Shown piece by piece: positions 1 through 16,447 of a stretch of 64,000 nucleotides of DNA. This stretch comes from Candidatus Poribacteria bacterium (lineage in GTDB: Bacteria; Poribacteria; WGA-4E; WGA-3G). The first letter of the stretch is position 1; each line of letters opens with the position of its first letter. A program made the translations under genes and the position numbers. The DNA lies in NCBI GenBank assembly GCA_965242965.1, contig OZ251518.1, positions 2,240,001 through 2,304,000 on the forward strand. Reading direction: 5' to 3'. The notes under the pieces were generated by a model. That model ran no database searches. It worked only from the letters and a program-made list of their open reading frames with translations, and was not told where the DNA came from.

Positions 1-1
1 A

Positions 2-1630
2 GAGGGACGCTACATCGTCCTCTTCGCGCCGCGCCAAACGGGGAAGACGACGTTCTTCTACAACGCGCTTGACGCACTCGTCGCCGAGGAATCGGACTAT
101 TTCCCGATCCAACTCAATTTTGAGGTGTATGAAGGCGTGGAACCTGCCGAATTTTACGCCGACTTCCACCAAGATATTCTGATGGAAATTGAGGACATGT
201 TCCAAAAGCGCGGCATAGAACCCACTGCGGCGTTAAGCGAATTCTTAACGCAGGCGCAAATAACCAACCATCTCTCAATGGGAAGGTTTTTTGAGAAGTT
301 GACACGTCTGCTCAGCCAGCAGGCAGCAGACGCACCCTTGCGAGGGACAGGTATTCGCACCACGGAATCTGGGGAAATAAACGGAGGAATCGCAGCCCCA
401 CCGCGATTTCCTCGGATTGTCCTCATCATTGACGAATTTGACGGCATCCCTCCCGCCGCGGCGAAGGGTTTTCTTCACACTCTCCGCCGCATTTACCTCA
501 CGCGAGGGGAGCGATGTATCCACAGCGTCGGCATCGTCGGCGTGAAAAGTATCAAGCAACTCAACTACGATAGGACTATCTCGCCGTTTAATATCCAAGA
601 TGAGTTCGCTTTGCACAACTTCACACTGGCGCAAGTGGAAGAACTCCTTGGGCAATATACCGCAGAAGTCGGACAACCGTTCGCCGCTGACATGATTGCG
701 GCACTGCACCGGCAGACAGGCGGACAGCCGTTCCTCGTCAACCGCCTCGCGCAGATACTCACCGAGGAGATGGCTATCCCGAAAGACGTGCCCATCACCC
801 TCGCGCACTTTGCGAAGGCACACACTGCCATCCTTGAGGAAATTAACGTCAACATTGAACACCTGACTACCAATATTCGCCGAGACCGGCGGTTTCAAAA
901 CCTCCTCATGGAAATCGCCACGTCGGAGAAAGCGGTGACTTTCAACCCGCGCAACGAAGTCATGCGTGAACTTGCAACCTATGGCGTTATCACGCAAGGC
1001 TCCGATGGGCAGTGTGAGATTGTCAATCCGATTTATCACCATCGCATCCTGCAGGCGTTCCAACCGGCCATCAACGGATTGGAGGACGATTACTTCCCCG
1101 AAGACACCGGCGCAGAATTTTCGGATTACCTCACCGCCGATGGACAGATTGACCTGACATCGCTGCTGGACAACTTCCGGGATTTCATCGCACGCATCGG
1201 GTTTCGGGTTCTGCAGGTGCCGGGCATTCCAAAGGAATCCGTTGGGCAATACCTGCTCGCCACATATCTTGATGCGTTTGTGCAGTTCGTGCGGGGTGAC
1301 ATGTATCTGGAACTGCCAACCGGCCGCTGTCAGATGGATTTAGTGGTGTTCCACAACGGCCGCAAATATGTCGTTGAAATCAAGGTATGGAACAGCGAGA
1401 AGCGGTATGAGGGAGGCAAACAGCAGCTGGCTGCCTATCTCAAATCGGAGGGGGTTTCGGAGGGCTACTATGTGGTGTTCGATCGCCGTGAAAACCCAGA
1501 ACCCCGCGTAGAGACGGAGACGATAGACGGGTTGCGGATTCGGAGTTATGTTATACCGGTGTTGCAGGAGCGGCCGTCAGATTTATCGGAGGAATTGGAG
1601 GGATATGGGACTTATACCAAATGCCGTTGA
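2..1630 (+). CDS. AAA-like ATPase with C-terminal PD-(D/E)XK nuclease domain (5'-partial)
   Basis: The frame is open from the window start. Walker A APRQTGKT lies upstream of the called ORF. Walker B LIIDEFD, SPFNI and TGGQPFL motifs; C-terminal MDL...VVEIK...QL..Y nuclease motif. Confidence 0.8.
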   Translation, partial: EGRYIVLFAPRQTGKTTFFYNALDALVAEESDYFPIQLNFEVYEGVEPAEFYADFHQDILMEIEDMFQKRGIEPTAALSEFLTQAQITNHLSMGRFFEKLTRLLSQQAADAPLRGTGIRTTESGEINGGIAAPPRFPRIVLIIDEFDGIPPAAAKGFLHTLRRIYLTRGERCIHSVGIVGVKSIKQLNYDRTISPFNIQDEFALHNFTLAQVEELLGQYTAEVGQPFAADMIAALHRQTGGQPFLVNRLAQILTEEMAIPKDVPITLAHFAKAHTAILEEINVNIEHLTTNIRRDRRFQNLLMEIATSEKAVTFNPRNEVMRELATYGVITQGSDGQCEIVNPIYHHRILQAFQPAINGLEDDYFPEDTGAEFSDYLTADGQIDLTSLLDNFRDFIARIGFRVLQVPGIPKESVGQYLLATYLDAFVQFVRGDMYLELPTGRCQMDLVVFHNGRKYVVEIKVWNSEKRYEGGKQQLAAYLKSEGVSEGYYVVFDRRENPEPRVETETIDGLRIRSYVIPVLQERPSDLSEELEGYGTYTKCR

Positions 1631-1643
1631 TTCGTATCGGCTC

Positions 1644-1718
1644 TGTAGGACAAAATCTCCCGATTTTGACTGTTCGGGCTCCCGATGTCACTCACATCGG
1701 AGGGTTGCGAGCCCGAAC
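1644..1718. repeat. Degenerate GTAG-type palindromic repeats between convergent genes
   Basis: gtaggacaaaatctcccgattttgac and gttcgggctc...gagcccgaac hairpins resemble the window-wide repeat families. Confidence 0.5.
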
Positions 1719-1828
1719 GACCCAGATTCATTTGGTATTCCCCCTATCTCCGTCCTCCGAACTTTGGAGAATAGCTTGAGGGATTGGGACATGGAGGTTT
1801 AATTCCGCAGCAACCGTTGAGGCGACAC

Positions 1829-3031
1829 CTATCCCTTGGCCGTTGAGGTCTGAACCTGCTCAATTGCATACTTAAAAGTTTCCTGATAAACGGTGCTTTT
1901 GAGTCGGCTTTCAATGAAAGTTTTAAGCTTACCAGCCTTTTCCGCTTCGCGCGCGCTTCGCGCCTCAAAGTTGAGGGCATACAGGTTATGACAAGCCCGA
2001 CGATGGATATGGTTTTCGCCATCTCGATCTTCGAGATAGTCTAGGTAGGAAAGTGCTTCGGCTTCATTGTGAATGTCCCGATCTTCTCCCTTATCCCAGT
2101 CTTTGATGGCAAACCCCTCTTCATCTATTAACTGCAGCAAACGCCTTGCAAAGTGACGGCGGGTTTCTTCATATTTTTTCTCGTCTTTTGCTCTCTCGCG
2201 AGCGGAAAACCGAGTCCAAGGAAAACCCGGTAATTGCACATTTTTGAATGCCGCGCTGAGGATCCATGTCTGTGAATCCACCGTGTTGGCACCGCAATAA
2301 AAAGCAAAGAGCATCAGCAGCGCAGAGCCGAGTGAAAAACAGTGGATATGTGCATCTGGGAACAGTTGCCGTGCCTTGCAAAGGATCTTAATTACCTTTC
2401 GTTTACTCCCGTTGCGCGCGAGCGGTGCCAAACTTCCGATGCCAACGATAGGAGGATCGTCCCCCCAGATCTTGACAATCTCCTCACAGCAACGCTTAAG
2501 AGTTTCGTCATCGTGGCCATGAAGCACCGGCATGAGTTGAAAGTCGCTGGGTAACTCCCCGTTACGAGAGGTGAATTCATCAAACATTCTACGGGTGTTC
2601 GCTAGCGTGTTTCCCCAACGGATGCTTATCTCTTCATCTGCGGATTTAGGGAGAAAAGGATGATCGAGCACGACAGATACATCCACCTCGCAGGCAATTC
2701 CAAGGTTCAGAACATCAAGCGCGTCAATGCTAATGTCTGCATGCTTCTGGAAGTTAAAGCCGCCGGAGTCAAGCATCACCGGTCCGTCAAACTTGATGTG
2801 CTCGTGAAGTTTGGCTTGCCCTTTTCGGATTTCCGATGCAACTTGCCGAGTTCGGTGATTTGCTAGAAAGTCGTAGGCGTTCACGAGGATGGCTTGGGTA
2901 CCCGTCATCTCCCACGGCGGAAGACGCAGGCCTGCGCGCGGATAATCGCCTACCCGATAACTCGCAAAAAGGTTCGGGATTTCCAAACGCTCCCTTGAAA
3001 AGACCTGTGAGTGTGTCACGTCCGGATCCAT
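1829..3031 (-). CDS. tRNA-guanine transglycosylase-like protein (archaeosine-TGT/DpdA-like)
   Basis: Motifs MLDSGGF, LDHP, PVLHG, GIGSLAP, HIHCFSLG, GANTVDSQTW and HNL, i.e. a TGT TIM barrel with the three catalytic Asp positions. Confidence 0.85.
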   Translation of the reverse strand: MDPDVTHSQVFSRERLEIPNLFASYRVGDYPRAGLRLPPWEMTGTQAILVNAYDFLANHRTRQVASEIRKGQAKLHEHIKFDGPVMLDSGGFNFQKHADISIDALDVLNLGIACEVDVSVVLDHPFLPKSADEEISIRWGNTLANTRRMFDEFTSRNGELPSDFQLMPVLHGHDDETLKRCCEEIVKIWGDDPPIVGIGSLAPLARNGSKRKVIKILCKARQLFPDAHIHCFSLGSALLMLFAFYCGANTVDSQTWILSAAFKNVQLPGFPWTRFSARERAKDEKKYEETRRHFARRLLQLIDEEGFAIKDWDKGEDRDIHNEAEALSYLDYLEDRDGENHIHRRACHNLYALNFEARSAREAEKAGKLKTFIESRLKSTVYQETFKYAIEQVQTSTAKG

Positions 3032-4197
3032 TAAAGTCCTCCTTCTTCGACAATCTTTTTTACCCGGTCCCGCATTCTGGGCAAAAAATATCCAGGCAAC
3101 ACACCAAGTTGAGACCCCTCAACTTCTTGTCTCAACGAATGGTACTCCTCGGCGGCAATGTCCTTTATCATAGATTCTAACTCATGATACCGCCCGGGCT
3201 TCCCTTGCTTTTCGTGCTTCTTGAGATACGCCTCATACTTGTTTCGTCCACTGTTCAAGTAGTCTGACACGTACTCAATCGCGAGATTGAGGGAGTCAAT
3301 AGGTTGAAGATCTATCGGTTCGCCTAAGCGCCGCTCAATAGCCGGATATTGCCTAAGGTCTTTCGGTTCCGGAATCGTCGCGACGACAAAGAAGACGCGC
3401 TCCTTTAGCACATCAAAAAAATGCCGCAGGTCTTGCGCATACCGGGCCTGGCGCGAATAAGTGCGACCTTCAAAAATCTCCTCAAATTCGTCAAACAGCA
3501 GGACGATGCCGTCGCAAAGACCGAGTTCTTTTAACACGCCAAGCAACCCATTCAAGAACCGCATTGCGAGTGACGGACTCGTAATGTCAGAAGGGGGAGT
3601 CCCATCGTGAGTTAATAGATTCTTATCCGCGGATAGGAGTTTTTGCCCTTTCAGCCAACGCACGAAGGTTTCCGCACGCCGCTCACTGTAAATAGGGAAC
3701 AATTCACTCTGCTCAACGAGAGCTCTAACCGCTTTTAAGATTTCGGACGCGGGTTTAATTTCCGCTGAGAGTTCGCCAATCTTTCTCGGTGTCGTTTGCA
3801 AAATCGTCAGCAGATCTCCCAAGAATAACTCAGACAGCCTATCGACAATTTGTACGTGGATGTCAAAGTAACTCTCGCCGGGGTTAGAGATATAGATTGG
3901 GTGAAGGCTTCCAATGTATCTACTCTGTCTCGCTTCATCAGTTAAGCGTTCAAAGTAGCGCAGGATATTTGTCTTTCCTGCACCACTCTCCCCGTTAATC
4001 CGCAGCCGTTTTGCCGTTGAGGAGAAATCCTGCAGAATAGTGACAAATTTTTCTTTTATCTCACCTTGGTCGCTACAGACATCAAAACCTGTTTCACCGT
4101 AGCCCGGAAACGGATTTTCAAGGAGAAAATACTCCTCATAGGGATTGTCTACGGATTTACGTTGAAATAGTTCCTCAAAGTCTTTTTTGAGTGTCAC
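3031..4197 (-). CDS. P-loop AAA+ ATPase
   Basis: ENPF, Walker A GESGAGKT, Walker B LLFDEFEE and Arg-finger-like PAIERRL. GTG start follows GGAGG and overlaps the upstream TGA; the stop overlaps the downstream ATG. Confidence 0.85.
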   Translation of the reverse strand: MTLKKDFEELFQRKSVDNPYEEYFLLENPFPGYGETGFDVCSDQGEIKEKFVTILQDFSSTAKRLRINGESGAGKTNILRYFERLTDEARQSRYIGSLHPIYISNPGESYFDIHVQIVDRLSELFLGDLLTILQTTPRKIGELSAEIKPASEILKAVRALVEQSELFPIYSERRAETFVRWLKGQKLLSADKNLLTHDGTPPSDITSPSLAMRFLNGLLGVLKELGLCDGIVLLFDEFEEIFEGRTYSRQARYAQDLRHFFDVLKERVFFVVATIPEPKDLRQYPAIERRLGEPIDLQPIDSLNLAIEYVSDYLNSGRNKYEAYLKKHEKQGKPGRYHELESMIKDIAAEEYHSLRQEVEGSQLGVLPGYFLPRMRDRVKKIVEEGGL

Positions 4198-5117
4198 TTT
4201 GCCACCTCCCATCGAATCAATTTAACCAGTTTGCCGTTGACGCGCATCCCATCCACCAGATAGCGGTGCTCAATCCACTCCGGTTGATGTGACTTTCCAC
4301 CGAGGAGTTCAGCAGCCAGGCGTTCTCGCAGAATCTCTTTTCTCGGCCGTATAGAGATGATTCGGAAACGTCCCGAAACTACACGCCGAATCGTCGCCGG
4401 CGCAAGTCTGATTTCCCCCGGGCAATTTTCAACAAACTGGTTGAACTTCATCTCAAAAGCCTGAAAGGAGATCTGCAGTTTTTGACACACGCAATGTGCC
4501 AAACGCCCCAAGTTCGCGTAACCCGAAGTCTTATCTGCCTGATGATAACCCTCAATGCAGACTTCTTTGAAGTCTTCTAATGAGGGACGCGCTGCATCCC
4601 ACTCGCCACCCCAATAGAGTTCATCTCCAAACGGTGAACGGTAGGCGTGTCCCACCGCTACTGCCCACCTCCAAAAGGTGTCAAAGGCAACAAAGGTAAT
4701 GCCATATTCTTCCTTTAAGAAACGTCCCAAATTCCTTTTATCTGTCTTAGACTGACGCTGCGGAATCTGAATCTCTTTCTTGTCCTTCAGGCAATCAAGG
4801 AAACTTGCGTAAGGCGGATAATTCCTCAAACCTTCATTCATCGGCAACAAATGAGCTCCAGAGTCCCATGCGTCCATAAACGTACGATAATTCTCGGTAA
4901 GACCTAAGACACGAGAATTTCCAGCACTGGGTGTGATCCACTTGGCTGCCACAAAAACGCGCAAGATATCCCGCACCCGACGCTCAAGGTGCTTGACTCG
5001 GCCTTGACTCTCAATGATTTCGTGGAACGTATCCAGAGAGAGTTGGCTTTCACAACGACGGTGTGTCTCAATGCCATCGGCAACGGAAAGTAACTTGTTC
5101 ACCGAGATCGGATCCAC
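4194..5117 (-). CDS. Hypothetical protein, possibly winged-helix DNA-binding
   Basis: 307-aa ORF with RBS GGAGGG, translationally coupled on both sides. The fold is a guess from the helical/basic pattern. Confidence 0.6.
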   Translation of the reverse strand: MDPISVNKLLSVADGIETHRRCESQLSLDTFHEIIESQGRVKHLERRVRDILRVFVAAKWITPSAGNSRVLGLTENYRTFMDAWDSGAHLLPMNEGLRNYPPYASFLDCLKDKKEIQIPQRQSKTDKRNLGRFLKEEYGITFVAFDTFWRWAVAVGHAYRSPFGDELYWGGEWDAARPSLEDFKEVCIEGYHQADKTSGYANLGRLAHCVCQKLQISFQAFEMKFNQFVENCPGEIRLAPATIRRVVSGRFRIISIRPRKEILRERLAAELLGGKSHQPEWIEHRYLVDGMRVNGKLVKLIRWEVAK

Positions 5118-5120
5118 TTG

Positions 5121-6212
5121 TTATTCCCTCCGTATTTCTAGCACATCGTGTGCAAAGAATCCCGCCTGCGCTTCTGAATAGTAATTGAGTTCGTATGAAA
5201 GTTCCTCGTTCTTAAGGTGAATTGTGCTGAAGACCTGCGTCAAATCCCACAGTAGGTAGTGTATAGGCGTTAGCACCAATCCGCCGTTATGGGAGTCGTA
5301 TCGGACTGAACTTATCTCCTTAGGTAAGGATGGGACTGGGACACCGACATGAAGGCTGCCTTGGTCTTCCAAGGTTGCAAGCGAAGCCATATCCTTATCG
5401 CCGGTGAGCAGATATACACCCCTGTGAATCCCTCGGTCTCGCTTGAGGTTCTTCACGCTTTCAATAATCAGCCGATCCACTTGCGCGAACCTCCCTAAGT
5501 GTTCCGGAAGCGTGGTTAGCATTTCTACAGGCCGCCATTGGCGAATGTGGTTTAATTCGCGGCTAATGGCCGTGATCTGTGGGCGTTTCCCAAGCACACT
5601 GCAATTCTTAAGTTGAGGTTTCTTACCGTACCAGATTTCCTTCAACGCACCCGCCTGTCGCTGCACCTCAGTCATCACGAAAACCGGGACAACTGTCCAA
5701 ATCTGAACATCCCGCAGAGTTTGGTGAAGAAAAGATACTGCCCCTCGGCGCAGGGCGCTAGTATCAGCGACAAGCGTCAAGTAGCCGAATCTTGATAGCC
5801 GCTTCATCACTTCCTGAAACTGCATCTCAACAGTCTGTTCTTCCATAGTCTGTTCTTCCATCAGGCAAAACTCTGGACGGAGAATTCCAGTTCGGACTAG
5901 ACTATCGGCGAGTTGATTAGGAATAACGCTTAGGGCTTTCTCCACCCTCGCCTTCTTGGATTGCTTTTGCTGCCCCTTTTCTGCCAATGCAGAAAAACAG
6001 TTCTCAATCTGTTGAGCACTCACAGGACGAAAAGTGAAAGGAACAATCGGATAGGTTCGCGCCGTTTCCTCGGAGGCATCAATCGTGATGTCACCCAGTT
6101 TCACATATTCGTCTTCCGATAAATGAGTCCCATCTGTATAGGAAACTTCCCATTCGCCGCTGAATCGGTATTCAGCAATGAACTCATCTAATTTTAGAGC
6201 TCGCCTATCCAT
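5121..6212 (-). CDS. PIN-domain nuclease
   Basis: LVADTSAL, VVPVFVMTEV, VDRLIIE and LLTGDKDM supply the PIN acidic tetrad. Confidence 0.8.
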   Translation of the reverse strand: MDRRALKLDEFIAEYRFSGEWEVSYTDGTHLSEDEYVKLGDITIDASEETARTYPIVPFTFRPVSAQQIENCFSALAEKGQQKQSKKARVEKALSVIPNQLADSLVRTGILRPEFCLMEEQTMEEQTVEMQFQEVMKRLSRFGYLTLVADTSALRRGAVSFLHQTLRDVQIWTVVPVFVMTEVQRQAGALKEIWYGKKPQLKNCSVLGKRPQITAISRELNHIRQWRPVEMLTTLPEHLGRFAQVDRLIIESVKNLKRDRGIHRGVYLLTGDKDMASLATLEDQGSLHVGVPVPSLPKEISSVRYDSHNGGLVLTPIHYLLWDLTQVFSTIHLKNEELSYELNYYSEAQAGFFAHDVLEIRRE

Positions 6213-6612
6213 CAGAAATTCTCACTTCGTAGTCAGAATGCGGGGAGTGATTCTGCAAAATCTCCGTTACCACAGCAGATAAAATGGTGCTTGACTTCAA
6301 CACCGAGGTGGAAACACTCTCCGTATCTGGAGATTCTTCCGTGTCCGTTTCGAGATTTGTGAGTTGAGAAATCACCCGATCTTTTAACGGATCTGGCAGA
6401 TAGAAATCAACGGTCTTTGGACCTGATACGGGTTCACTAGTCTCCGGATCTATTGAGTCCAATTCCTCCACGTGCTTTTTAAGGCAACTCAAAGGAATTA
6501 CGACTGGTTCACTAAAATCCTGCCACTCCTGAAAATCAAGGATGGAAAGGTCTGGCACGTCATAAGGCTCGATTACTTCCTGTGATGTGCGATGAAAAAT
6601 TTCCACTTTCAT
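6205..6612 (-). CDS. Small acidic protein with possible ribbon-helix-helix C-terminus
   Basis: First gene of the operon; overlaps the PIN gene start. KTVDFYLPDPLKDRV...LSAVVTEILQNH resembles CopG/RHH. Confidence 0.55.
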   Translation of the reverse strand: MKVEIFHRTSQEVIEPYDVPDLSILDFQEWQDFSEPVVIPLSCLKKHVEELDSIDPETSEPVSGPKTVDFYLPDPLKDRVISQLTNLETDTEESPDTESVSTSVLKSSTILSAVVTEILQNHSPHSDYEVRISDG

Positions 6613-6642
6613 CCGGATGTTGACTCCACTTACTGAAAGAAC

Positions 6643-6671
6643 ATTTTAGCAAAAGTGCCCGATTTTTGCAA
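6643..6671 (-). promoter_or_regulatory. sigma70-type promoter of the PIN/ATPase/TGT operon
   Basis: Minus strand TTGCAA-N17-TAAAAT with TGn extension, about 30 bp upstream of the ATG. Confidence 0.6.
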
Positions 6672-6818
6672 GAAAAAAATTCGGAAACCGTCGCTATCTA
6701 TTTTCTACAACAGAACTATTTAGTCATCCGGACGTTGCGCGGCTATAGCGAGTTCCCCGTTTGAACCGCGCGAGGGGAACCGAAAACCGAACGCTAAATG
6801 CATTCTGCTAATGAATTA

Positions 6819-6848
6819 ATTATACCACAAAAAGTGAATTAATGTCAA
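6819..6848 (-). promoter_or_regulatory. Second minus-strand sigma70-type promoter
   Basis: TTGACA-N18-TATAAT with TG extension. Confidence 0.5.
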
Positions 6849-7112
6849 ATTTATTTCGGAAAAATCTGGATTCGCCGAAAATTGACACCCTTTAACTTTT
6901 TTCATCATAGTTTTCCCGATTTTCTAGACATCACATTCACTATTGACATGTTACGTTACCATAATAACACACACCCAACGCAAATGTCAAATTTTTCTTC
7001 TCAAAAATCCATTTTCCTTGCAGCTATTTTCGCTTTCATGCTATACTACTGCAAATCGCCACTGCCGAAACCAGGGTTTTTAGCAACTTTTTATCCCAAC
7101 ATCACAAAAAAA

Positions 7113-7141
7113 TTGCAAATTATTCGGAAGTGTGGTAAAAT
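7113..7141 (+). promoter_or_regulatory. sigma70-type promoter of arc
   Basis: TTGCAA-N17-TAAAAT with TG extension, followed by GAGGAG RBS and ATG at 7183. Confidence 0.65.
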
Positions 7142-7182
7142 GTATTTCGTAAAGTCATCCCCTTCCGCCTGAGGAGACGTTC

Positions 7183-8982
7183 ATGTACGCCAAAAATACT
7201 AAATACGCCGGGAAACACCCCGAGCAAGTCCAGTTCGTTGAAGATGACGAAGAACTGGAGGAAGAACTCGAAGAAGCCGAAGAATACGCAAATAGCTCCG
7301 GCTACTCATTGCAACTGATTCACCACATCATCTCCGAAACACCTGTCGAAGACCGGCGACGAAGATGGCTCCTAGAACTCCGCCGTTCTATCCTCAGCGA
7401 TGAAGGTGAATTCCAAGAACGCGTCCAAGCCATCCAGCGTGAGGCTCTCCGCATACACGCCGAAATGGAGGAGCAGATCGAGCAACTCACCTCTCCCGCT
7501 AATCGCATCGGGACACTGCTCGGACTGCCCAAGGAAGATGTCGCACGCGTCATCGTCGGCGGCTCCGAATACTACGCAAACCTCGCACCCGAACTGAACC
7601 CGGCTGAACTCAGAAAGGGATACAGCGTGTTGCTGAACGACGCATTTGTCGTCGTCGGAGAACTCGGGTATAGCGATGCCGGCCCTATCGTTAAAGTCGC
7701 TGACGTGCTACCCGACAACCGCATTCGCATCGGCGGCGAACCGAACGCGCAATCCGCTATCTTGGAACTCGGCGCAGAACTCGCCGATGCCAAACTGAAG
7801 CCGGGAGATGAAGTGCGCATCGACCTGAATTTTCGTGTCGCAATCGAGCAGATAGCCGCCAAAGAAGCAGACCATTACGCGCTAGAAAAGGTGCCGGAAA
7901 TCCCGTGGTCGAAGGTGGGTGGACTTGACGAAACCATCCAACTTATCAAGGATACCATTGAACTGCCCATCCTCCACCCGGAACTCTTCAAGCGGTTTCA
8001 ATACAGCGCGCCGAAGGGATTCCTACTGCACGGACCGCCGGGATGCGGCAAGACGCTCATCGGGAAGGCAACCGCGCATAACCTCACCGAACAACTGCGC
8101 AGCGAAACCGGCGAGGAGATCGAGGGGTGTTTCCTTCACATTAAGGGACCCGAGATTCTCAACATGTGGCTCGGCGAATCTGAACGGAAAGTCAGGGAAA
8201 TCTTCCAAATGGCACGTGAAAAACGGGAAGAAGGGAAACTCGCTTTTGTCTTCATTGACGAAGCAGAATCGATTCTAGGCACCCGCCGCGCACTCCGTTC
8301 ACACAGCATCTCGAACACGCTGGTACCGATGTTCTGCGCGGAGATGGACGGAATTGAATCCCTGCACGACGTGGTCATCATCCTCGCAACAAACCGGCCA
8401 GATCTGATCGATCCGGCGATTCTGCGCCCCGGACGCATTGATAGAAAAATCAAGGTGAAGCGTCCCAACGCAATAGCGGCGAAGGATATCTTCCGCATTT
8501 ATCTCACGCCGGAACTGCCGCTCATCCCAGAACGCGAAACGGAAGACGAAGTCGCAGAGGATGCGGCAGACTACGGCACGGAAAAACTCGTCGCAGACCT
8601 GATTGGACAGGTAGTTCATGAGATGTTCCGGGAAGACGAGGACAACCGATTCTTGGAAGTCGCACTCCGCAGCGGGAGACGCGATATTCTCTACCGCGGG
8701 CATCTCTGCAGCGGCGCGATTATTGAATCCATCGTGCAACGCGCGAAGGAGTCCGCACTGAAACGCGCAATTCGGGAGCCGGAGAGGGAGGCAGGCATCA
8801 CACGCGCAGACCTGTTGGACGCGCTCAGTGCCGAATACAGCGAAAGCGAAATCTTTCCACCGACAGAAGCGACAGAGGACTGGCTCAAACTCCTCGACTA
8901 TGAACCGGAGAATGTGGTGAAGGTTACGCCTATCCGAACGGAGAAACGCGAACGCCGCAAGACTGCAAGTCGGGTGATTTAA
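7183..8982 (+). CDS. arc: Proteasome ATPase ARC/Mpa
   Basis: Coiled coil and OB region, GPPGCGKT, IKGPEILN, FIDEAES and DPAILRPGRIDRKI; located in a proteasome locus. Confidence 0.93.
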   Translation: MYAKNTKYAGKHPEQVQFVEDDEELEEELEEAEEYANSSGYSLQLIHHIISETPVEDRRRRWLLELRRSILSDEGEFQERVQAIQREALRIHAEMEEQIEQLTSPANRIGTLLGLPKEDVARVIVGGSEYYANLAPELNPAELRKGYSVLLNDAFVVVGELGYSDAGPIVKVADVLPDNRIRIGGEPNAQSAILELGAELADAKLKPGDEVRIDLNFRVAIEQIAAKEADHYALEKVPEIPWSKVGGLDETIQLIKDTIELPILHPELFKRFQYSAPKGFLLHGPPGCGKTLIGKATAHNLTEQLRSETGEEIEGCFLHIKGPEILNMWLGESERKVREIFQMAREKREEGKLAFVFIDEAESILGTRRALRSHSISNTLVPMFCAEMDGIESLHDVVIILATNRPDLIDPAILRPGRIDRKIKVKRPNAIAAKDIFRIYLTPELPLIPERETEDEVAEDAADYGTEKLVADLIGQVVHEMFREDEDNRFLEVALRSGRRDILYRGHLCSGAIIESIVQRAKESALKRAIREPEREAGITRADLLDALSAEYSESEIFPPTEATEDWLKLLDYEPENVVKVTPIRTEKRERRKTASRVI

Positions 8983-8994
8983 CGGTTTGCCGCT

Positions 8995-9245
8995 ATGTAT
9001 CGGGACAGGGATGTCCCTCCTACGGCGCGGGAATTCCCAGTAGGAGAGACCTAATCTTGACCCGTTCGGGTGCAGGCGCACCCGAACTACGCGCTTGGGA
9101 CATCCCAGTAGGAGAGACCTCCTGGTCTCGATTTCCGCTGATGTATCGGGACAGGGATGTCCCGCCTACCGGGGATGCGGAGAGTATCGGGACAAGGATG
9201 TCCCGCCTACCGGGTAGGAGAGACCTCCTGGTCTCGATTGCTGCA
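8995..9245. repeat. Cluster of GTAG-type REP-like palindromes
   Basis: Copies of atcgggacagggatgtcc..cctac and gtaggagagacctcctggtctcgat in both orientations. Confidence 0.85.
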
Positions 9246-9310
9246 TCGCGCGGGACCCTGGCCATCGCAATAATTCAACATGAGGAGGCGCACAGAGGAA
9301 CTCAAAACCT

Positions 9311-10831
9311 ATGCAAAGAATCTTTGGAATCGAAACGGAATATGGCATCACGCTTGAAAATGCGGAGCACATCGACGCGGTCAAAGAATCCATCGCGCTG
9401 ATCCAGAGTTATCGGCGTGAGGACTTCCGGCCGATGTGGGACTACGGCGGCGAAGACCCGTTTCGTGATGAGCGCGGCTTCCGGGCGAAGACGCTCTCCA
9501 ATCATCCCGATGAGAAGGAGGCGGAGAAACGCGACCGGCTGCACAATCTCTCCTTCGCGGAAATCAAGAGCGACCGGATTCTCGGCAACGGCGCGCGACT
9601 TTACAATGACCACGCGCATCCGGAGTATTCCACGCCGGAATGCTGCAGTCTGTTCGATCTGGTGGCGCACGACAAAGCAGGCGAACGTATCCTGCAGCGA
9701 TGCGCCGAAACCCGCAGCGAGCACCTCGGAAAGCGCGTGTTGCTTTACAAAAATAATACCGATTTCCACGGGCATAGCTACGGCTGCCACGATAACTATC
9801 TCATGGCACGTGAGGTGCCGTTTGAATACCTCAAGGAGTGCATTCTACCGTTCTTCGTCACGCGGCAGATTTTCGCCGGTGCTGGGAAACTCGGCATTGA
9901 AACGGAAGCCGGGCTCGCGACACCGGGGCATTTTCAGTTGGCGCAGCGTTCTGATTTCTTTCACGTTGAAGCAAGTATCGACACGATGCACCAGCGTCCC
10001 ATCTTCAATACGCGAGATGAGCCGCACGCCGATGCCACTAAATATCGCAGACTGCACGGAATCGTCGGCGATGCAAACATGTCTGAATACGCAACAGCGT
10101 TGAAAATCGGCACAACCGCGCTCGTTATCGCGCTGATCGAGGCACGCAAAATTCCAATGGAATTGGCTCTCGCGAACCCGATTGACACCATCAAAACTAT
10201 CTCGCACGACCAGGGATATCGGTGGCTCGTCACAACGGCAACGGGAAAGACGATGTCCGCGATCGACCATCAGCGTGAATATCTCGCCATTGCCAGCAAG
10301 TATTTTGCCGAATCGGACGTTGCGCACCAATACGAAGAATTCGAGTTTGACTGGGTGCTAACTGAATGGGAGGATACGCTAAACACCTTGGAGAAGGACC
10401 CGATGTTGCTCACCGACCGGCTCGATTGGGTGGCAAAGAAATGGCTCTTGGAAACCTTCGCCGAGGAAGAGCAACTGGACTGGGATGACCCGTGGCTGCA
10501 GAGTCTCGACCTGGAATACCATAACGTCGATCAAGAGGAGAGTCTCTTCTATGGGGTGCCGATGCGGCGCGTTGTGACTGACGAACAAATCGACGCGGCC
10601 ATCCATGCACCGCCGGCAGGAACGCGTGCCTATTTCCGCGGCAACGCCATCAATCGGTTCAACGAATGCATCAAGGCAATCCAGTGGGATAGCATTACCT
10701 TCCAGGTCAACAGCCGCCCTGTCTCAGTGGACATAGCCGCGCTCGCCGATGCCGAAATCGCCAGCCGCTATAACAAGACGCTTGACGAATCACCGAACGT
10801 TGAAACGTTGATTGAAAAATTAGGATTGTAA
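9311..10831 (+). CDS. dop: Dop-like depupylase/deconjugase (PafA2 family)
   Basis: RIFGIETEYG, Dop loop WDY..EDPFRD.RGF, NGARLYNDHAHPEYSTPEC and YRRLH.IVGDANMSE. Confidence 0.88.
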   Translation: MQRIFGIETEYGITLENAEHIDAVKESIALIQSYRREDFRPMWDYGGEDPFRDERGFRAKTLSNHPDEKEAEKRDRLHNLSFAEIKSDRILGNGARLYNDHAHPEYSTPECCSLFDLVAHDKAGERILQRCAETRSEHLGKRVLLYKNNTDFHGHSYGCHDNYLMAREVPFEYLKECILPFFVTRQIFAGAGKLGIETEAGLATPGHFQLAQRSDFFHVEASIDTMHQRPIFNTRDEPHADATKYRRLHGIVGDANMSEYATALKIGTTALVIALIEARKIPMELALANPIDTIKTISHDQGYRWLVTTATGKTMSAIDHQREYLAIASKYFAESDVAHQYEEFEFDWVLTEWEDTLNTLEKDPMLLTDRLDWVAKKWLLETFAEEEQLDWDDPWLQSLDLEYHNVDQEESLFYGVPMRRVVTDEQIDAAIHAPPAGTRAYFRGNAINRFNECIKAIQWDSITFQVNSRPVSVDIAALADAEIASRYNKTLDESPNVETLIEKLGL

Positions 10832-11090: not shown

Positions 11091-11107
11091 GGTGCAGCCC
11101 GCACCAG

Positions 11108-11297
11108 AACGTAGCGCGAGGGCCTGTCCCTCGCGAACCTACAATCTGAAGAAACGCACCGAGGAAGCCATCGAGACCGGGAGGTCTCTCCTACCTCGCG
11201 AACGCGCAGCCTGCACTGGCCCGTAGCGCGAGGGCCTGTCCCTCGCGAAGACGCAGCCCGTATCGGCCCGTAGCGCGAGGGCCTGTCCCTCGCGAAC
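11108..11297. repeat. GTAG-REP cluster
   Basis: Three copies of cgtagcgcgagggcctgtccctcgcgaa plus one atcgagaccgggaggtctctcctac. Confidence 0.9.
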
Positions 11298-11320
11298 CCA
11301 GAATATAAAGAGGAGCACCT

Positions 11321-12199
11321 ATGAATCACATCGCGACCGAGAGGACTCTCCTACCGGGCGAAAACAACCACAAAGGCGACTTTCTCAGCCTCTTAAATCA
11401 CGCGGGAATTAAGACCGGGGGCACGTCTCCCGCCAACGTTTCCGCGTCAGATGCCGTAGCAAGCGAGATTGAAATCGCGCACAGCACCACGGTCATCGCC
11501 GTGCGCTATCGTGACGGCGTGATGATTGCCGGTGACCGGCGTGCCACCGCCGGCACCGCTGTCATCTACGACAAGGCGGAGAAAGTCCTCCAGATTGACA
11601 ACTATTCTGTCCTTGCCATCTCCGGTTCGCCCGCGATTGCTTATGAAATCGCGCGGATATTGGAGCATTCGTTCCAATACTTCCGCCGCAGCCAACTCCA
11701 AGAATTGAGCCTAGAGGGCAAACTGCGGATGCTGTCGCGGCTGATTCGGGACAACCTCGCCATGGCACTTCAGGGCATCGGCGGTGTCATTCCAATCTTT
11801 GCGATTTACGACGTAAACGCTCAATCCGAATCCGAATCCGCCGAGGATCGCGAACCGTCCGCAAAGAACAGCGGCAAAATCTTCTTCTACGATGCCCTCG
11901 GTGCGCACTTTGAGAACGTCGATTTCGCCACCACCGGCTCCGGCTCCATCTGGATTCGTGGTGTGCTACGTTATCTCAACCAATGGGGAGAAACGCGCCT
12001 AGAAGAAATGGACGAACAGCAGGCGACGATTACCATTTTGCGGCTTCTTGACACGGCAAGCGAATATGATGCCGCCACGAGCGGCTATAACGCGAAGGCG
12101 AAGATCTTCCCAACCGTAAAAACCGTCACACAAGATGGAATCAGGAACGTGTCCGATGAATATCTTGAGGAATGTTACGCAGAATGCGGCCCGCAATAA
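11321..12199 (+). CDS. prcB: 20S proteasome beta subunit
   Basis: HSTTVIA, AGDRRATAG, EK, LSLEGK, TGSGS and YDAATSG. Confidence 0.92.
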   Translation: MNHIATERTLLPGENNHKGDFLSLLNHAGIKTGGTSPANVSASDAVASEIEIAHSTTVIAVRYRDGVMIAGDRRATAGTAVIYDKAEKVLQIDNYSVLAISGSPAIAYEIARILEHSFQYFRRSQLQELSLEGKLRMLSRLIRDNLAMALQGIGGVIPIFAIYDVNAQSESESAEDREPSAKNSGKIFFYDALGAHFENVDFATTGSGSIWIRGVLRYLNQWGETRLEEMDEQQATITILRLLDTASEYDAATSGYNAKAKIFPTVKTVTQDGIRNVSDEYLEECYAECGPQ

Positions 12200-16193: not shown

Positions 16194-16447
16194 CCGTAGG
16201 AGAGACCTCCTGGTCTCGATGCCCGTAGCGCGAGGGCCTGTCCCTCGCGATTGTTGTAAATACCGCCCGCGGTCCCGTAGCGCGAGGGCCTGTCCCTCGC
16301 GATGCAAACCGAACCGTGAAACCGTAGCGCGAGGGCCTGTCCCTCGCGATCGTTGTAAATAACGCCCGTGAAACCGTAGCGCGAGGGCCTGTCCCTCGCG
16401 ATCATTCGGCGATTCAAGCATGGCGGGGGACAGGCCCCCGCCCTACG
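16194..16447. repeat. GTAG-REP cluster
   Basis: Four copies of ccgtagcgcgagggcctgtccctcgcgat plus gagacc- and gggggacaggcccc-type variants. Confidence 0.9.

Follow-up and report, generated by a model that had tools for sequence, protein, structure and literature searches.

A horizontally acquired five-gene cassette of Candidatus Poribacteria as a possible compact relative of Dpd, a restriction-modification system based on 7-deazaguanine in DNA

Introduction

What is an enzyme of the tRNA-guanine transglycosylase (TGT) superfamily doing in an operon with a nuclease and an ATPase, and on which molecule does it act? The question is raised by a cassette of five genes, g1-g5, in a 64,000-nt stretch of DNA from Candidatus Poribacteria bacterium (GCA_965242965.1, contig OZ251518.1, positions 2,240,001-2,304,000), which as a whole we call the window. 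In the order of transcription the genes encode a small acidic protein (g1), a PIN-fold nuclease (g2), a winged-helix protein (g3), an ATPase (g4) and the TGT-like enzyme (g5). A previous account made from the letters alone, here called the sequence-only reading, took them for an undescribed defence module of foreign origin. Here we report on the status of the cassette as an island, the conservation and co-occurrence of its genes, the folds and catalytic residues of its proteins, its defence-island context and its linkage to deazaguanine genes. The explanation that we favour, at a probability of about one half, is that the cassette is a horizontally acquired and compact relative of Dpd, the 7-deazaguanine DNA restriction-modification system.

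Results

The cassette lies in an inserted island

The site of the cassette is empty in two genomes of the same genus, G002 and G001, in which blastn places 138 bp and 98 bp apart the flanks that in the window (1-1614 and 7012-8961, or 6997-8981) are separated by about 5.4 kb; the DNA identity of these flanks is 84-89%. Part of the segment 1750-1810 is similar to intergenic sequence of G001, so the left edge of the island may lie nearer 1810. In four public runs, which stem from three studies and are in part labelled sponge metagenome, contigs have the cassette at this same junction, and no empty-site joint is among the joints listed for them. In two sponge-metagenome runs the contigs have just 7 letters, of other sequence, from 1614 to 1749, which indicates that related strains have the cassette without the hairpin-containing 134-bp segment 1615-1748. 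No RNA dataset carrying the cassette is listed among 13 runs.

Six of 41 related genomes (the window's own counted) have the gene g5, and neither of the congeners G001 and G002 is among them; across the phylum it occurs in 18 of 176 genomes and in 9 of 31 genera. The corresponding count for g2 is 19 of 176, with both genes present in 17, and the three genomes in which the two disagree are accounted for by contig ends (G066, G149) and masked bases (G004). With an empty site in congeners and so scattered an occurrence of g5, the horizontal acquisition that the sequence-only reading had proposed is borne out: the cassette was acquired horizontally. As to a viral origin, pattern scans of IMG/VR with g5 and g2 profiles gave no match, nor did a tblastn search of 50,697 phage records with g5. 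A plasmid search with g5 returned five distant haloarchaeal matches at 24-29% identity and no others.

Relatives share a conserved operon with a sixth gene

A scan of species-representative genomes yielded 26 loci with close relatives of g5, in Poribacteria, Latescibacterota, Chloroflexota and one Saccharibacteria genome. The genes g2-g5 are collinear in 23 of them (Poribacteria, Latescibacterota and Chloroflexota), the other three being truncated (L007), cut by a contig end (L010) or equipped with a different partner set (L024). A search of metagenome contigs with a g3 profile added 12 loci, 8 of them long enough to judge, and all 8 have a full collinear set of six genes, g0-g5. The survey of co-occurrence that had been suggested as a check on the module has thus come out in its favour. 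Some copies are decayed, by an insertion sequence (IS) in L002, into fragments in L003, by truncation in L007 and by stop codons in g4 in L023, which fits the turnover that is usual for defence genes.

The sixth gene, g0, encodes a DUF6884 protein and belongs to 23 of the 26 loci, standing directly upstream of g1 and on the same strand in 20. Of the two motifs that the Pfam paper gives for DUF6884, CxxxK is found in all 8 of its products examined and LSAxxG in 6 of these 8. DpdC of the Dpd system is itself a DUF6884/DUF328 protein (PMC11888242, PMC12839542), and the DUF6884 protein encoded beside a bona fide DpdA of the same phylum shares 36-43% identity with the g0 proteins. In PADLOC they match the candidate family PDC-M57A only, a family that was not found in the literature searched. 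In two Chloroflexota loci, L017 and L021, the gene for a YhhQ-family (preQ0) transporter precedes the DUF6884 gene. The sequence-only reading had recognised no Dpd partner; this holds for the window, but the relatives carry a DpdC-family gene, so that such a partner belongs to the cassette family and not to the window's copy. Its presence in the relatives suggests that the cassette is a variant of Dpd, and not something unrelated.

Two subtypes of the cassette can be told apart. Subtype B comprises seven genome loci and most metagenome loci, and compared with the window its g2-g4 proteins are about 30% identical, its g1 counterpart (115-122 aa, encoded at the corresponding place) 15-18% and its g5 about 63%, while the DUF6884 protein is 60-67% identical between subtypes. 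The TGTs of both subtypes are intermixed in a quick tree, and one genome has both subtypes, 88 kb apart. Conserved g0 and g5 with divergent g1-g4 fit a conserved chemistry module joined to fast-evolving partners. In the Saccharibacteria locus (L024) DUF6884 and g5 are paired with a 614-aa protein and HerA, and the same pair of a 614-aa protein and HerA is added downstream of a full cassette in L021; a HerA gene is added only in these two loci and in L023. Four genomes of the phylum have a canonical DpdA as well as a g5-type cassette. At L055 (G060) and L056 (G084), two loci of the phylum with a canonical DpdA, the DpdA gene is grouped in a short cluster with HerA, an unknown protein of 310-540 aa and a DUF6884 gene and without DpdB, and these clusters are another compact Dpd variant. 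The mixing of subtypes and the sets in L024, L021 and the DpdA-HerA clusters suggest that the pair of TGT and DUF6884 behaves as a module that is joined to varied partners.

g5 has the catalytic residues of the TGT superfamily

The product of g5 matches the Pfam TGT family at 58 bits. Its closest sequence in the PDB is that of the Pyrococcus archaeosine TGT (ArcTGT, 1iq8, E 1.5e-10), with which it aligns as far as the catalytic domain, the Asp of its DSGG motif falling on D95 and the Asp of its VDSQ motif on D249. D88, G90, D123, G172, G199 and D252 are invariant across g5, the haloarchaeal TGT described below, bDpdA and the host Tgt, and H171 and G197 are invariant inside the g5 clade. The catalytic and substrate residues reported for DpdA are D95, D130, H181, G182, G206, G207 and D256 (PMC10164549), and g5 has the catalytic residues of TGT and DpdA. 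In a quick tree the g5 clade stands apart from DpdA, on long branches that make its deep placement unreliable.

Among family models the archaeosine enzymes score best with g5, which together with the closeness of 1iq8 might suggest that the base is exchanged in tRNA. PIN domains are mostly RNases, and the g2 protein could then be a VapC-like tRNA or mRNA RNase. We consider this very unlikely. The scores lie far under the family cut-offs (76.6 bits against 350 for the archaeal TgtA model TIGR00432, and 16.9 against 306.75 for the bacterial Tgt model TIGR00430); at 400 aa, against 582 aa for ArcTGT, g5 lacks the C-terminal tRNA-binding domains; the host already has a canonical Tgt; and the partners (DpdC family, winged helix, ORC-like ATPase) are of the DNA type.

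The partner proteins

The g4 protein reaches 24.5 bits on the Pfam domain BrxC_BrxD, just over the cut-off of 22.2, and has a partial PADLOC match to BrxD (E 6e-9), with 34.2 bits against a cut-off of 350 on the BrxD equivalog NF033438. Searched against PDB sequences, its profile gave TnsC (E 0.04) as the sole match. Its homologues show no variation in the Walker A (G74-T81) and Walker B (D241-E242) motifs and conserve an NPFP motif near the N-terminus. The N-terminus itself (window 4198-4212, minus strand) starts with M-G in 9 of 9 subtype-A proteins, mostly as MGG, and in 0 of 7 of subtype B; as the MGG codons overlap the end of g3, their conservation may stem from g3.

For g3 no match was found in Pfam, NCBIfam, PADLOC or PHROG, nor with its profile among PDB sequences, and its family of 304 proteins consists of unnamed or 'hypothetical' entries, none with a Pfam domain. 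The AlphaFold2 (AF2) model (88.6 in pLDDT, the predicted score for the local distance difference test) has tandem winged helices; Foldseek gave no match to it at E<=0.001, and its weak matches are multi-winged-helix proteins (UFL1, AlkX/YcaQ, Dcc1, RPC62, FokI, SspB). Judged by this model, g3 is likely a DNA-binding or scaffold subunit.

The PIN domain that had been assigned to g2 is confirmed as a fold. Its score of 17.2 on Pfam PIN_4 is below the threshold of 21.9, and the AF2 model (pLDDT 84.2) gave 13 Foldseek matches in the PDB at E<=0.001, every one a PIN domain (among them 5f4h, 9jxx, 3ix7, 3i8o and the SMG6 PIN 2hww). The domain spans about residues 140-290, with conserved beta-rich regions on its N- and C-terminal sides. 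Across 17 sequences D150, E182, D246 and D272 never vary, while at least 90% have D274, so that g2 has both the fold and the acidic residues of a PIN nuclease. An allophycocyanin match in the PDB profile search (E 0.7) was set aside as noise.

The 'RHH-like' label given to the g1 protein finds no support in Pfam or NCBIfam (E<=0.01), PADLOC or PHROG, none of which matched it. The PHROG negative extends to all of g1-g4, and PADLOC-DB 2.0.0 has no model for g1-g3. Within subtype A the identity of g1 is 37-66%. That g1 might be a paralogue of part of g2 was rejected (hhalign probability 0.2%).

Defence context and supply of deazaguanine

The flanks of the related loci contain SspD with a phosphorothioate-dependent HNH nuclease, a type III methyltransferase, HEC-03, Cas6, DndB and RmrA, and further DarTG, HerA, PD-T4-4-like ATPases, MazF, ParE and IS elements. 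These flanks are typical defence islands, and the defence-island setting foreseen by the sequence-only reading is thereby found around the relatives. Directly upstream of three of the cassettes an SspD-like PAPS-reductase gene stands together with a gene for a phosphorothioate-dependent HNH restriction nuclease (L004 4031-5769, L005 3664-5695, L025 3916-5723), and in L006 the latter stands alone (4827-5792); this suggests a recurrent pairing of two DNA-modification-based defences.

That the cassette has no immune role, and serves instead as a mobile module for DNA repair or housekeeping or as a selfish addiction cassette, is the reading to which we give the least credence. It would draw on the layout of a PIN protein with a small acidic partner, which in this respect only is like a toxin-antitoxin pair, and on the DUF6884 member YfjM, which the Pfam paper ties to the binding of DNA lesions. 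The patchy spread, the empty site in congeners, the defence genes that flank most relatives and the decayed copies in L002, L003, L007 and L023 argue against it.

The host can supply the bases itself, for its genome encodes QueC, QueD and QueF, along with a canonical Tgt that reaches 532.6 bits on Pfam TGT; no YhhQ was found in it. Elsewhere in the same genome a third TGT-superfamily gene (L049, G000:C1 ~369-381 kb) encodes an ArcS-like protein of 648 aa with TGT and DUF5591 domains; its neighbours are a 1103-aa protein with phospholipase D (PLD) and SNF2-type helicase domains, two unknown proteins and an Eco57I-like methylase, and the locus may be a second deazaguanine-linked defence cluster.

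The five haloarchaeal plasmids found with g5 carry a gene for a TGT-like protein of 344 aa (327 aa and annotated as hypothetical in the fifth plasmid, H5), followed by one whose product has about 293 aa. In three of the five the third gene of the operon encodes a 'BREX system ATP-binding' protein; in a fourth it is frameshifted, and H5 has at that place a 139-aa AAA ATPase and then a much larger protein with the BREX ATP-binding annotation. Compared by hhalign with the H5 triad excluded, the three proteins correspond to g5 (probability 98.8%), g3 (89%, E 2e-6) and g4 (98.8%, E 1.3e-16). The triad adjoins genes for QueD, QueE, QueC, a queuosine-precursor transporter (YhhQ), DUF6884, PLD, helicase, EVE and restriction proteins. 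The frameshifted case is that of a Natronococcus plasmid (L047 8481-9631), where the BrxD-like ATPase gene lies unannotated in two overlapping frames (213 and 204 aa), probably as a pseudogene. By its adjacent protein accessions, the Halomicrobium plasmid (H4) appears to be the source of the YprA helicase that represents BRIGADE by name, and from the shared plasmids we infer that the haloarchaeal triad belongs to BRIGADE. Judged from gene neighbourhoods, the link to DNA and deazaguanine that the sequence-only reading had drawn is strengthened by the DUF6884/DpdC-family gene, the YhhQ transporters and the haloarchaeal relative beside QueC/D/E.

Base exchange by TGT enzymes is reversible, and it could be used on incoming DNA and not to write the base into that of the host, with g5, g3 and g4 recognising or excising 7-deazaguanine in modified phage DNA and the PIN nuclease then acting, in a system of a type IV-like kind. 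Such a version would work without a DpdC-family gene, as the window's copy would have to. Deazaguanine-modified DNA is also common in phages (PMC10516641). We find this reading improbable, in that YhhQ importers and QueC/D/E beside the relatives argue for the supply of a base and not for its removal, and the DpdC-family partner suggests the maturation of a base that has been installed.

Gene layout, composition and leader

The five ORFs (open reading frames) are intact, lie on the minus strand between 1829 and 6612 and are translationally coupled (Table 1). Both the ORFs and the junction strings agree with the earlier description of overlapping or abutting starts and stops: g1 and g2 overlap by 8 nt in ATGGATAG, g2 and g3 are separated by 3 nt (the TAA stop of g2, CAA, and the GTG start of g3), and g4 and g5 meet in TAATG. 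At the g3/g4 junction the GTGA that had been described is present, the stop of g3 lying within ...AAAGTGA, but the start of g4 that homologues support is an ATG at 4212, which gives an overlap of 19 nt and the N-terminus MGG... that is common to homologues. GGAGG-type ribosome sites stand upstream of g3 and g5.

Table 1. Positions of the cassette genes, their leader and the surrounding island in the window
Feature	Position	Strand	Description
g1	6205-6612	-	135 aa; small acidic protein without known family, coupled to g2
g2	5121-6212	-	363 aa; PIN-fold nuclease
g3	4194-5117	-	307 aa; tandem winged-helix protein without known family
g4	3031-4212	-	393 aa; ORC/Cdc6-type, BrxD-like P-loop ATPase
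g5	1829-3031	-	400 aa; divergent TGT-superfamily base-exchange enzyme
Leader and promoter region	6613-6990	-	promoter-like sites, hairpin, folding leader
Inserted island	1615-7011		about 5.4 kb between an AAA_35/NERD gene and a proteasome-ATPase gene

The guanine-cytosine content in 500-nt windows is 0.44-0.52 over 1751-6750 and 0.53-0.59 in the flanks (0.53-0.55 over 1-1750 and 0.54-0.59 over 7251-10000), in keeping with the lower content that had been described. The same holds for the REP-like palindromic repeats, which are present in the host intergenic regions 8997-9254, 11094-11358 and 16196-16402 and of which none lies within 1829-6671. The repeats belong to at least three families, and similar ones are found in the congener G002.

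Upstream of g1, on the minus strand, a promoter-like TTGACA-18-TATAAT matches at 12 of 12 positions (6848-6819), and further sigma-70-like sites match at 11 of 12 (6990-6961) and 9 of 12 (6671-6643). The promoter-like sites on which the claim of a promoter of its own was based are thus present; with 8 of them in the region and 5.2 +/- 2.4 in shuffles, their count is by itself not significant. The 206-nt leader of g1 folds with a z of -2.5, equalled by 2 of 200 shuffles, and contains a unique hairpin at 6752-6781. An Rfam scan of 1500-7300 (E<=1) gave a match to fstAT only, rejected as chance level (25 bits against a cut-off of 72), so that the leader has neither a preQ1 riboswitch nor one of another kind in it. 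About 10 similar copies of the promoter-bearing segment 6816-6866, at 77-90% identity, are found elsewhere in the genome.

Beside the island, the AAA_35 and NERD gene at 2-1630 of the plus strand has about 20 paralogues in the genome (56-64% identity), partly in tandem, with three at C1:3585017-3589802 and four at C1:4110538-4117064; no PADLOC model matched its protein.

Discussion

How might such a cassette work as a compact relative of Dpd? The biochemical steps, the substrate and the anti-phage role given here are those that we infer for it. The g5 enzyme would swap guanine in host DNA for a 7-deazaguanine, most likely preQ0, drawn from the host QueC/D/E/F pathway. The g4 and g3 proteins would engage the DNA and might give the ATP-dependent step that in Dpd is done by the ParB-like DpdB; alternatively or additionally, they might license restriction as BrxC and DpdH do. 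The DUF6884 (DpdC-family) enzyme of most relatives would convert the inserted dPreQ0 further, to dADG in Dpd, and the window's copy, having no DUF6884 gene, would stop at the first product. The g2 PIN nuclease would then be the effector against nucleic acid without the mark, and g1, its co-translated acidic partner, would act with it.

The comparison with named systems places the cassette nearest to Dpd. In both there is a TGT-fold enzyme with the same catalytic residues, in both the genes form a mobile island in a defence setting, and the relatives of the cassette share with Dpd a partner of the DUF6884/DpdC family and the nearness of YhhQ or preQ0 genes. In contrast to Dpd, g5 is not an orthologue of DpdA but lies in a separate clade of the quick tree and has no zinc site, the partners are an ORC/BrxD-like ATPase, a winged-helix protein, a PIN nuclease and a small acidic protein, and the cassette is of about 5-6 kb compared to about 20 kb for Dpd (PMC5699537). 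Salmonella DpdB must hydrolyse ATP for the insertion of preQ0 (PMC10164549). For BREX-related capture (BRC) systems with HerA, GNAT and TGT, it has been proposed that the place of DpdB is taken by an NTPase (PMC12839542). These resemble the cassette in having a TGT without DpdB or DpdC that is joined to ORC/STAND-type ATPases (PMC12839542), yet they are built on PglZ, DUF6079, a STAND NTPase, DUF4007 and HerA, none of which is in the window's cassette.

BRIGADE is described as a Dpd-like system, reported from halophilic archaea only, with YprA-family helicases and PLD or PD-(D/E)xK nucleases (bioRxiv 10.1101/2025.09.15.676423). The haloarchaeal triad of TGT, ~293-aa protein and 'BREX ATP-binding' protein, near deazaguanine genes, is a distant homologue of g5, g3 and g4. 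Set against BRIGADE as so described, the cassette has no helicase or PLD, has a PIN nuclease and another gene order and lives in a bacterial host; the haloarchaeal TGT moreover keeps the CxCxxC motif that g5 lacks. Type IV CBASS with Cap10 and QatABCD likewise reuse queuosine-pathway folds in defence, Cap10 being a TGT without a zinc site and QatABCD pairing an ATPase with a nuclease, and no QueC-like Cap9/QatC, CD-NTase or TatD was found in the five proteins or in the flanks of the relatives. With BrxD of BREX type 2, g4 shares the BrxC_BrxD Pfam domain and the partial PADLOC match; of the other BREX genes, PglZ, PglX and BrxC among them, none is present.

The sequence-only reading knew of no named system with this composition, and PADLOC, which gave a partial BrxD for g4 and weak DpdA/TGT matches for g5, matched none either. 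The gene set was not found in the literature searched on DUF6884, DpdA/DpdC and deazaguanine defence, a search that did not cover the supplementary tables of the BRIGADE, BRC and GATOR-GC papers. The cassette is best read as a new version, with new partners, of a known kind of deazaguanine-based DNA modification and restriction.

Several observations weigh against this reading. The DUF6884/DpdC-family gene is absent from the window's island; no credible remnant of it was found in 6500-7200 (best E 0.009 over 25 residues), and the only DUF6884 gene of the genome lies 1.65 Mb away, adjoins secDF and is about 28% identical. DpdB is absent from the cassette, and among 19 loci scanned over +/-3.5 kb only L006 has a DndB-like gene; the domains of DpdD-K (SNF2, DEAD and YprA helicases, PLD) were found neither in the cassette nor within +/-3.5 kb of the 19 loci. 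PIN domains being mostly RNases, a DNA-acting PIN restriction nuclease would be unusual. The g5 protein reaches 23.1 bits on the DpdA model NF041059 (an NCBIfam equivalog, cut-off 200), whereas true DpdA of the same phylum reach 414.8 and 422.7. The CxCxxC zinc motif is absent from the three g5-clade sequences aligned and present in bDpdA, the haloarchaeal TGT and the host Tgt of the same alignment; DpdA and tRNA TGTs retain this site (PMC10164549), and the protein-directed TGT homologue Cap10 likewise lacks it. Finally, the substrate loop of g5, G-S-L-A-P, is like the bacterial preQ1-type L231/A232 and unlike the archaeal preQ0-type V197/V198, which makes the identity of the base uncertain.

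In the g5 clade an insertion of about 70 residues stands in place of CxCxxC. The only equivalent of a zinc ligand left is H348, aligned with ArcTGT H307, and C231, C246 and C347 are the only invariant or near-invariant Cys among 18 g5 sequences. A motif HxHxxxCH at residues 341-348 (window ~1988-2011, minus strand), in which H343, C347 and H348 never vary and H341 hardly does, may be a metal site that replaces the one that was lost. On its sequence, g5 appears to form a TGT clade of its own that has no zinc site and is DpdA-like by context.

The missing zinc site, shared with Cap10, opens another possibility, in which g5, instead of marking DNA, would bind or transfer deazaguanine on a protein or small molecule and restrain the PIN nuclease until infection, in the manner of abortive infection. 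Relatives of the TIM-B type within the TGTs have been proposed to keep diverse effectors under negative control, the partners of g5 are far less conserved than g5 itself, and the M-G start of the nine subtype-A g4 proteins loosely recalls the conjugation site M(G/S)G(G/S)GG of type IV CBASS, where an N-terminal Gly bears 7-amido-7-deazaguanine. We hold this to be unlikely, if the most credible of the alternatives. The N-termini of subtype-B g4 have no Gly start, there is neither a QueC-like conjugating enzyme nor a CD-NTase in the cassette or flanks, and winged-helix g3 and ORC-type g4 are typical DNA-engaging modules; the constant partner, moreover, is of the DpdC family, which in the published accounts of Dpd acts on DNA-borne preQ0.

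Another possibility, which we rank just behind the last and find doubtful, is that the immune response is triggered by transglycosylation itself. The g5 enzyme without its zinc site would be loaded on DNA by g4 and g3 and would serve as a sensor or switch, a base exchange freeing the PIN nuclease; what is exchanged could be an excised 7-deazaguanine of a phage, or deazaguanine passed to or from a protein, for example at Gly-2 of g4. If this were true, the defence would be set off by an event of exchange and not by an absent mark.

Should the cassette be a compact relative of Dpd, as we favour, its meaning would lie first in its size. Canonical Dpd is described by its authors as surpassing in size and complexity all restriction-modification systems found so far, the reason for this complexity not being understood (PMC10164549). 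A natural version with five or six genes would be a far simpler model of how self and invader are discriminated by 7-deazaguanine, since it retains the base-exchange enzyme and usually the DpdC-type enzyme, while an ORC-like ATPase and a winged-helix protein replace DpdB and a single PIN nuclease replaces the helicases and PLD. Its occurrence mainly in uncultivated phyla associated with sponges and sediments may explain why it was missed. It would add to the TGT superfamily a clade without the structural zinc site, and with g3 a protein family of about 300 members, none of them annotated. It would also add evidence that the pair of TGT and DUF6884 is portable, being joined to at least four effector sets: DpdD-K, the HerA modules, BRIGADE and the present cassette.

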